DNA of 15,032 nucleotides from a virus (Duplodnaviria; Heunggongvirae; Uroviricota; Caudoviricetes): positions 1-15,032 of the IMG/VR virus record IMGVR_UViG_2563366979_000002; one strand, written 5' to 3'. The translations under genes and the position numbers were made by a program. The notes beneath the pieces are model-generated. The model made no database searches. It had not been told where the DNA came from and saw nothing but the letters and a program-made list of their open reading frames with translations. Shown here one piece after another: positions 10,576-11,101 of the stretch (the stretch's first letter is position 1; each line of letters starts with the position of its first letter).

Positions 10576-10980
10576 ATGAATGATGTTTATGCAGTTGTTG
10601 ATAATAACGTTGTTATTAATGTCATTATCTGGGACGGAATTTCTGAATGGAAACCAGAGGCTGGTAATTTAGTTCCGTTAAACGGCGATGCTGGCATCGG
10701 TTGGTCATATTCAGACGGAGTATTTACCGCGCCACCTCCCCCAGAACGCTCTCACAACGCGTTAGTTGCGGAGGCTGAGCTGCAGAAATCAGCACTACTG
10801 ACCGTAGCAAATAACGCAATAGCACCGCTGCAGGATGCCGTTGATTTGGAAATGGCGACAGACGATGAACAGACGTTACTGCTGGCGTGGAAAAAATACA
10901 GGGTACTGCTGAACCGTGTTGATACCTCAGCGGCACCCGAAATAGAGTGGCCTACGCAACCGGGGGAGCGGGCCAGTTGA
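10576..10980 (+). CDS. Tail fibre assembly protein (Tfa)
   Basis: 134-aa ORF; C-terminus [45 protein letters not shown] matches the conserved C-terminal domain of lambda Tfa as I recall it. Confidence 0.8.
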
Positions 10981-11101
10981 TATCAGGCGCAGGGGCAGCA
11001 TCAACTGCTGTCACTGCGTCGATGTAGTCGAGTACCGCATTCAGCCGCCTTTTTTCATCATCAGTCAGTTTGCGGCCTACACCTCTCCGTTGACATCTTT
11101 G
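10952..11101 (-). pseudogene. Remnant of a second, oppositely oriented tail fibre assembly gene (tfa'), 3' end only
   Basis: Minus-strand frame translates to ...[38 protein letters not shown]-stop, aligning with the Tfa C-terminal motif (DE--L-A---Y---L--VD---AP-I-WP); no start codon, in-frame stop at 11102-11104; overlaps the 3' end of the plus-strand tfa by ~29 nt. Confidence 0.55.

Follow-up and report, generated by a model that had tools for sequence, protein, structure and literature searches.

Invertible tail-fibre segments of the Pin/Gin/Cin type are built to a common plan, in which the constant 5' part of a fibre gene (stf) leads into a crossover site, a tip-encoding part and a tail-fibre assembly gene (tfa), followed by a convergent second assembly gene (tfa') with a second tip, an inverted copy of the site and a serine invertase. 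Inversion swaps the tip that is fused to the constant part, and the invertase gene usually carries the Fis-dependent recombinational enhancer in its 5' end. In the P segment of e14 (stfP-tfaP / tfaE-stfE, pinE), the inverted repeats are TTGGTTTGGGAGAAGG and its complement, and the Pin-family invertases of co-resident K-12 prophages (PinE, PinQ and PinR) are reported to act in trans across prophages (PMC12529663). Convergent, overlapping tfa genes and sites with a ...GTTGGTTTGGGAGAAGG... arm are also found in the Cin/C-segment of a P1-like phage-plasmid, in the P2-like phage vB_EcoM-640R3 and in the P2-like contig L053 (IMGVR_UViG_2571042420_000006), with a serine invertase adjacent to the segment in the P1-like plasmid and L053. 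Invertase and paired sites occur together in e14 and the P1-like plasmid, and the P2-like phage has paired inverted sites as well, its record ending beside the segment and containing no invertase. In CPS-53/KpLE1, a K-12 prophage at argW, the fibre gene yfdL carries a single pix site and is followed by the tfa gene yfdK, by a convergent truncated TfaE-type pseudogene (tfaS, between yfdK and yfdI), and then by gtrC/B/A and the prophage end. The serotype-converting Shigella phages SfIV, SfV, SfI and SfII, which have Mu-like tails, likewise carry gtr genes downstream of the fibre module, and gp22 of SfIV has been described as a further tail-fibre assembly protein and a possible explanation of host range (PMC3851460).

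The DNA analysed here (15,032 nucleotides; hereafter, the window) is chromosomal, from an Escherichia-type genome, and carries a defective prophage remnant of ~13 kb between ybhC (1-1284, minus strand) and ybhB (14556 onward, minus strand), that is, in the lambda attachment region (Table 1). At a joint around 4681-4692, the early genes run straight into an N-terminally truncated DNA-circularisation gene (4729-5970), with which the tail module begins; an 801-bp query spanning this joint found no place covering at least 80% of the query in 5,426 complete E. coli genomes. The element lacks the genes for head, sheath, tube and tape measure and is therefore defective. Close relatives that are nearer to complete are integrated at argW (NZ_CP119011 and L001) or at bioA-ybhB (L004 and L005). 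The surviving early genes include a homologue of PerC-family transcriptional activators (3462-3776, minus strand; Pfam PF06069, E=8.5e-15).

Table 1. Features of the prophage remnant and its fibre locus, in window positions
Feature	Positions	Strand	Remarks
Lambda-type integrase	1419-2489	minus	With xis; a few early genes follow
Mu-like baseplate genes	downstream of 4729-5970
ymfQ	9055-9639		After the baseplate genes
stf, constant 5' part (Sc)	9643-9945	plus	e14 StfP-like; whole stf gene, 9643-10575
Orphan crossover site	9920-9947		CTCTCGAAAACCTTGGTTTGGGAGATGG; pix-type (Hin/Gin/Cin/Pin family), single, inside stf at the Sc/Sv junction
stf, variable 3' part (Sv)	9946-10575	plus	Glycine-rich receptor-binding tip; Pfam Gly_rich_2 (PF21722), E=1.8e-18
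tfa, tail-fibre assembly gene	10576-10980	plus	Intact, 134 aa; Pfam Caudo_TAP, E=1e-32
tfa' stub, pseudogene	10952-11080	minus	Last 41-42 codons and stop of a TfaE/U'-type tail-fibre assembly gene
Unassigned joint	11081-11098		~18 bp; alignments show neither Tfa nor tailspike homology
3' stub of P22-type tailspike gene	11099-11236	plus	~44 codons and stop; between tfa' stub and gtrC
gtrC-like (485 aa), gtrB, gtrA	11374-14107	minus	O-antigen glucosylation operon; Pfam Glycos_transf_2, GtrA_DPMS_TM; gene names from PGAP

Up to the crossover site, the locus closely resembles the e14 P segment. The baseplate and constant fibre DNA is 96-98% identical to that of e14 (96% to K-12 e14 over window 8277-9947), the crossover site differs from that of e14 stfP by a single base and lies at the same offset of +284 nt from the start codon, the two tfa genes overlap by the same 29 bp, and the minus-strand gene is of the TfaE type. 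Unlike e14, the window lacks a second site, an stfE-type tip and a pin gene, its tfa' is cut to 42 codons, its tip is glycine-rich rather than a StfP tip, and the gtr genes stand where e14 has pinE-mcrA. The P1-like and P2-like segments differ from the window in the same sense, as they keep both inverted sites and both cassettes, compared with one site and half a cassette here. We consider it very probable that the tfa' stub is the inert remainder of an invertible tail-fibre segment of the Pin/Gin/Cin type. The resident fibre gene is named 'StfP, missing C-terminus' by PGAP, and when GTDB species representatives were scanned with the full Stf protein, the matches were confined to its constant N-terminal part and did not include the glycine-rich tip.

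The stub lies in a minus-strand frame that is open from 11101 to 10955 (49 codons) and ends with a TAG stop at 10952-10954. On this frame, residues 12-47 match positions 95-130 of the 131-position Caudo_TAP profile (PF02413; E=4.7e-10, 40.2 bits, cut-off 22.1), and BLASTP aligns the 42-residue stub to residues 160-200 of the 200-residue e14 TfaE with 28 of 41 positions identical (68%, E=4e-17). The family match is significant, yet the frame is incomplete as a gene, lacking the N-terminal domain and a start codon from which a full protein could be made, and its homology sets in at TfaE residue 159-160 of 200. The closest full-length relative is U' of the P1-like plasmid (80% amino acid identity); identity to K-12 TfaS is 64% over 39 residues and that to the C-terminus of the resident plus-strand Tfa only 43%. 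In a multiple alignment, the stub groups with the TfaE/U' type, comprising e14 TfaE, K-12 TfaS, SfIV gp22 and U' of the P1-like plasmid, through the pattern AGRKLT..E..RLNAVLDYIDAVTA.D...APD..WP..P. Judged by its sequence, the stub is thus a second, distinct Tfa of this type rather than a copy of the resident gene. A local duplication that inverted the 3' end of the resident tfa, arising as a replication or repair artefact rather than from a former second cassette, would account for the overlap between the two reading frames and for the ...D.S.AP.I.WP..P motif that both encode; it is, however, at odds with the 68-80% identity to TfaE/U'-type proteins against 43% to the resident Tfa, as well as with the diagnostic LNAVLDYIDAVTA motif of the stub, and we regard it as extremely improbable.

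Because the Tfa homology of the stub starts at G-R-K (A-G-R-K in sister loci), the true remnant corresponds to 10955-11080, or 41-42 codons, and the seven codons beyond it (11081-11101, QRCQRRG) are open frame without Tfa similarity in the alignments. In NZ_CP119011, PGAP annotates a pseudogene, 'tail fiber assembly protein, incomplete, missing N-terminus', at the position that corresponds to window 10952-11080. The stub and tfa converge and share 29 bp (10952-10980), and an identical convergent overlap is present in e14 tfaP/tfaE, CPS-53 yfdK/tfaS, SfIV gp21/gp22, the P1-like plasmid and the P2-like phage. A sequence-only reading of this DNA had proposed that the last ~40 codons of a second Tfa gene are readable on the minus strand at 10952-11101, converging on and overlapping the plus-strand tfa, and had suggested alignment to Tfa proteins as a check. 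Both the identity of the fragment and its convergent, overlapping placement are borne out by the profile match, the alignment to TfaE and the 29 shared base pairs; of the proposed range, 10952-11080 stands and 11081-11101, which is not Tfa-like, does not.

The rest of the second half of the switch is gone from the window. A tblastn search with PinE (E<=1e-4) that detects Pin in e14, L026, the P1-like plasmid and L053 gave no match in the window, tblastn with the StfE tip revealed no StfE-type tip there, and the tyrosine integrase is the sole recombinase-type match of Pfam to ten window open reading frames. Since the enhancer normally lies within the invertase gene and that gene is absent, the enhancer would be absent from the window as well. 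Where a functional switch has two complete convergent cassettes, two inverted crossover sites and an adjacent serine invertase, the window has one complete cassette (tip and tfa) plus the 42-codon stub, a single site and no such invertase. What it does share with a functional switch is a crossover site in the fibre gene at the constant/variable boundary, the point at which all homology breaks: the similarity of the window to e14, SfV, SfIV, SfI and SfII ends at 9944-9950, right after the site. The search for Hin-family crossover sites that had been proposed along with the sequence-only reading yielded one zero-mismatch match to the core AAACCNNGGTTT in the window, at 9927-9938 within stf, and a 21-nt pattern, searched on both strands of the window with three mismatches allowed, gave 1 match in total (0 expected by chance) and no second copy. 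The site agrees with the published, experimentally used e14 repeat at 15 of 16 bases. It doubles as coding sequence for the conserved fibre motif LGLGD, so that its conservation could stem from constraint on the protein rather than from retained recombination, and conservation alone does not prove competence.

Beyond the tfa' stub, the window carries a second scar. The plus strand encodes ...GTTAQRPVSPIVPVEYYDTTLGLPIWYNVTASSWQRADGTNT followed by a stop, which aligns to the last 44 residues of the intact tailspike of the P22-like prophage L007 (pattern ...TAQRP....YYDTTLGLPIWYN.TASSWQRADGTNT and stop in the protein alignment), and window 11153-11234 is 90% identical at the nucleotide level to the 3' end of that gene, annotated as 'phage tailspike protein'. 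The gene order in L007 is arc, ant, tailspike, then convergent gtrC-gtrB-gtrA, and int, with the tailspike directly before gtrC and no tfa sequence. The window reproduces this module, with a tailspike 3' end immediately upstream of convergent gtrC-gtrB-gtrA, and its GtrB and GtrA are each 98% identical to their L007 counterparts. From these similarities, the tailspike stub likely marks the source of the gtr cassette. The operon fills the place of Sv'/pin, with ybhB next (at 14556), and the tailspike 3' stub before it speaks for an exchange, by recombination between unlike prophages, in which a tailspike(3')-gtr module took over from tfa'(5')-Sv'-site-pin, rather than for a simple deletion. Sister loci with other gtrC types diverge inside the tailspike stub, from ~11186-11193. 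Just downstream of the gtrC stop, window 11325-11365 contains a perfect 13-bp inverted repeat (CCCTGAAGGAGAA / TTCTCCTTCAGGG) with a 15-nt loop; it has no T-run, and the terminator scan made no call on it.

The tfa' stub, the tailspike stub and gtr always occur together in close relatives, as would be expected if the tfa' stub had been imported with the gtr cassette from a donor phage and were foreign to the fibre module. The P22-like donor layout exemplified by L007, in which no tfa sequence separates the tailspike from gtrC, argues against this, as does the interleaving of the stub with the resident tfa by the 29-bp overlap, a geometry native to invertible segments, and such an import is very improbable. 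If the stub is instead the relic of an invertible segment, the left crossover site, the glycine-rich tip and its tfa would have been kept, together with the last 41-42 codons of tfa' from the other half. The remainder of tfa' would have been lost along with the alternative tip, the right-hand crossover site, the invertase and its enhancer, with a module typical of P22-like phages (tailspike 3' stub, gtrCBA and then the prophage end) in place of the lost half; we infer that the loss took place via recombination with a P22-like element. The fibre would thereby be locked in one orientation, and the stub would be untranslated and unneeded. The broader claims of the sequence-only reading fare well against these results. 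Its assignment of the layout to the Gin/Pin/Cin type (Mu G, e14 P, P1 C) is supported by the overlap, the shared site, the identity over the upstream 5.3 kb and the presence of the same tip and tfa in an intact pin-flanked segment of L053, and the alternative fibre gene and the invertase are gone, as it had stated, according to the tblastn searches. It had also placed the gtr operon where these genes would be: gtrCBA is there but does not abut the stub, as the 44-codon tailspike stub intervenes. Its suggestion that the switch was deleted or replaced is upheld, with replacement by the P22-like tailspike-gtr module being favoured.

Relatives with the same constant part span the range from intact to lost switches. 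The window is 97.4-97.7% identical in nucleotide sequence to two S. flexneri e14-family prophages over 4685-9944/9949, with 97.7% over 4685-9944 for L026. In L026, the site is followed by a tfaP-like gene, tfaE in full length, the stfE tip, a second site in inverted orientation and a Pin that is 98% identical to PinE, and the other prophage, L016 (S. flexneri CP182557), carries the segment at 7290-9845 in the opposite orientation, with tfaP fragments and a frameshifted pin. Among 19 loci from species representatives that share this constant part, taken together with the loci found earlier, the switch is intact in L002, L014, L015 and L026 and decaying in L016. A single site is combined with a tfa' stub of 171 codons in SfIV, where an IS element follows the stub, of 95 codons in CPS-53 (tfaS), and of 41-42 codons in the window, L001, L004 and L005; SfV has a single site and no stub, and L029 carries a mirror-image TfaP stub. 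An IMG/VR scan with the resident Tfa recovered 22 loci (Tfa identity at least 97%), each with one site and both stubs, and in addition L053. Erosion of such invertible segments appears to be common. Other IMG/VR loci (L072, L075-L077 and L080-L082) show frameshifted or truncated pin genes, or TfaP stubs of 34-47 codons with pin still there.

The exact stub does not occur as part of a full-length tfa' in the 5,426 complete E. coli genomes, in which every close copy of the stub is already joined to the tailspike stub and the nearest full-length tfa' has ~70-75% nucleotide identity. Nor did any of the relatives compared have the stub as a full-length tfa' beside the same Sv/tfa. Both deletion in situ and import of an already truncated block are compatible with these results. 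In the mismatch map between the window and L004, ~9889-11192 (Sv, tfa, tfa' stub and the 5' part of the tailspike stub) is 99.8% identical and both flanks differ. This stretch moves as a unit, one of its joints falling in the region of the site and the other within the tailspike stub.

The resident cassette itself is found inside an intact switch. Positions 4348-5393 of L053 correspond to window 9923-10968 with 96.8% nucleotide identity, the match beginning in the site core and spanning the glycine-rich tip and tfa. In L053, this cassette lies between two inverted sites and adjoins a pin gene (84% to PinE), which gives the Sv/tfa cassette a demonstrable history inside an invertible segment. 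The opposite cassette of L053 contributes another glycine-rich tip to a P2-type fibre gene of 504 aa, and its partner tfa' differs from the stub, being a short gene of 60 aa that encodes an N-terminal domain without the Caudo_TAP C-terminus. The homology to L053 stops at 10968, so the 3' end of tfa and the stub have a separate history. The last codons of tfa are the complement of the C-terminal codons of the stub; thus, the tfa 3' end is recombinant and travelled with the stub. The resident tfa ends in …TQPGERAS and a stop (window 10969-10980), different from the …TPPAE and stop of the L053 tfa (L053 5394-5396). The L053 invertible segment as a whole (3709-7073) is intact, and both of its alternative tips are glycine-rich (PF21722-like) variants.

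The orphan stf site might still be usable by Pin invertases supplied in trans, allowing capture or exchange of tip cassettes between unrelated phages, or chromosome rearrangement. A trans-active site would explain why the same Sv-tfa cassette sits on an e14-type constant part here and in a P2-type fibre segment in L053, and the homology to L053 sets in within the ~12-bp site core, where there is almost no flanking homology for ordinary recombination. We nonetheless hold continued use of the site to be unlikely.

Retention of the stub or the orphan site for an activity of its own was also weighed, be it as an antisense element or terminator for the late operon, as a micro-protein or as a selected homology linker for fibre/gtr swaps. 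The relic regions do coincide with recombination joints, given the shared block and its differing flanks, and both stubs are kept in all 22 IMG/VR loci with closely similar Tfa, L053 apart, although a single recent ancestor accounts for this co-inheritance. No usable start codon is available to the stub: its frame is closed by a stop at 11102-11104, and the sole start within it is a GTG that gives 20 aa. Promoter and terminator scans over the stub gave no signal above chance, and Rfam has no family over it. Among relatives, its length ranges from 0 to 171 codons, all with a complete tfa reading frame. Compared with sister loci, 4 of the 100 non-overlapping nucleotides of the stub differ, all at codon positions 1-2, against 4 of 376 nucleotides in tfa, which suggests that the stub may be drifting under relaxed constraint, with only four substitutions behind this estimate. 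Overall, an activity of the stub or site is decidedly unlikely, and we infer that the stub, the probable relic of an invertible segment, is without function. The 29 nt at 10952-10980 are kept because they double as the 3' end of the functional tfa.

As in CPS-53 tfaS, the window holds a truncated TfaE-type gene that converges on tfa and precedes a gtr operon at the prophage end, and in both the fibre gene has a single site. The two differ in that tfaS keeps 95 codons, is followed by yodE and has no tailspike stub next to it, and in that the resident tfa of CPS-53 is TfaP-like; CPS-53 is integrated at argW and the window prophage at the lambda attachment region, ybhC/ybhB. The stub is thus an already known and annotated kind of prophage scar, with a RefSeq pseudogene and K-12 tfaS as its counterparts. 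The ymfQ-Sc module of SfIV, SfV, SfI and SfII is 90-97% identical to that of the window at the nucleotide level up to the site, with gtr downstream in each case, and SfIV gp22 is a convergent TfaE-type gene of 171 codons. SfV differs from the window in having no stub, and SfIV in having an IS element beside the remnant. In SfIV (L008), gp22 (6190-6714, minus strand) is without a partner fibre tip, only one crossover site is present and an IS element adjoins the gene, which suggests that it is the same kind of relic, truncated, at an earlier stage. If so, the 'second tfa' genes of SfV-like phages, such as SfIV gp22, would be relics and not extra host-range factors.

The locus shows modular phage evolution in compact and readable form: an e14-type constant part, a site, a tip cassette shared with a P2-like element, the scar of a lost half, a P22-type tailspike scar and O-antigen genes follow one another as a mosaic. 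Its value lies mainly in annotation and in phage genome history, and a specialist would find none of it surprising; the paired stubs can serve as markers for the exchange of gtr cassettes between podovirus-like and myovirus-like prophages. Phage P2 was considered as a possible precedent, with such a remnant downstream of gene G, and was rejected, as NC_001895 has neither a minus-strand Tfa fragment nor a pix-like site. Within the tfa coding sequence, window 10743-10931 (plus strand) gives a sub-threshold match to Rfam IS009 (48.8 bits against a gathering threshold of 117, E=1.2e-9), probably because this candidate sRNA family is itself homologous to tfa genes.
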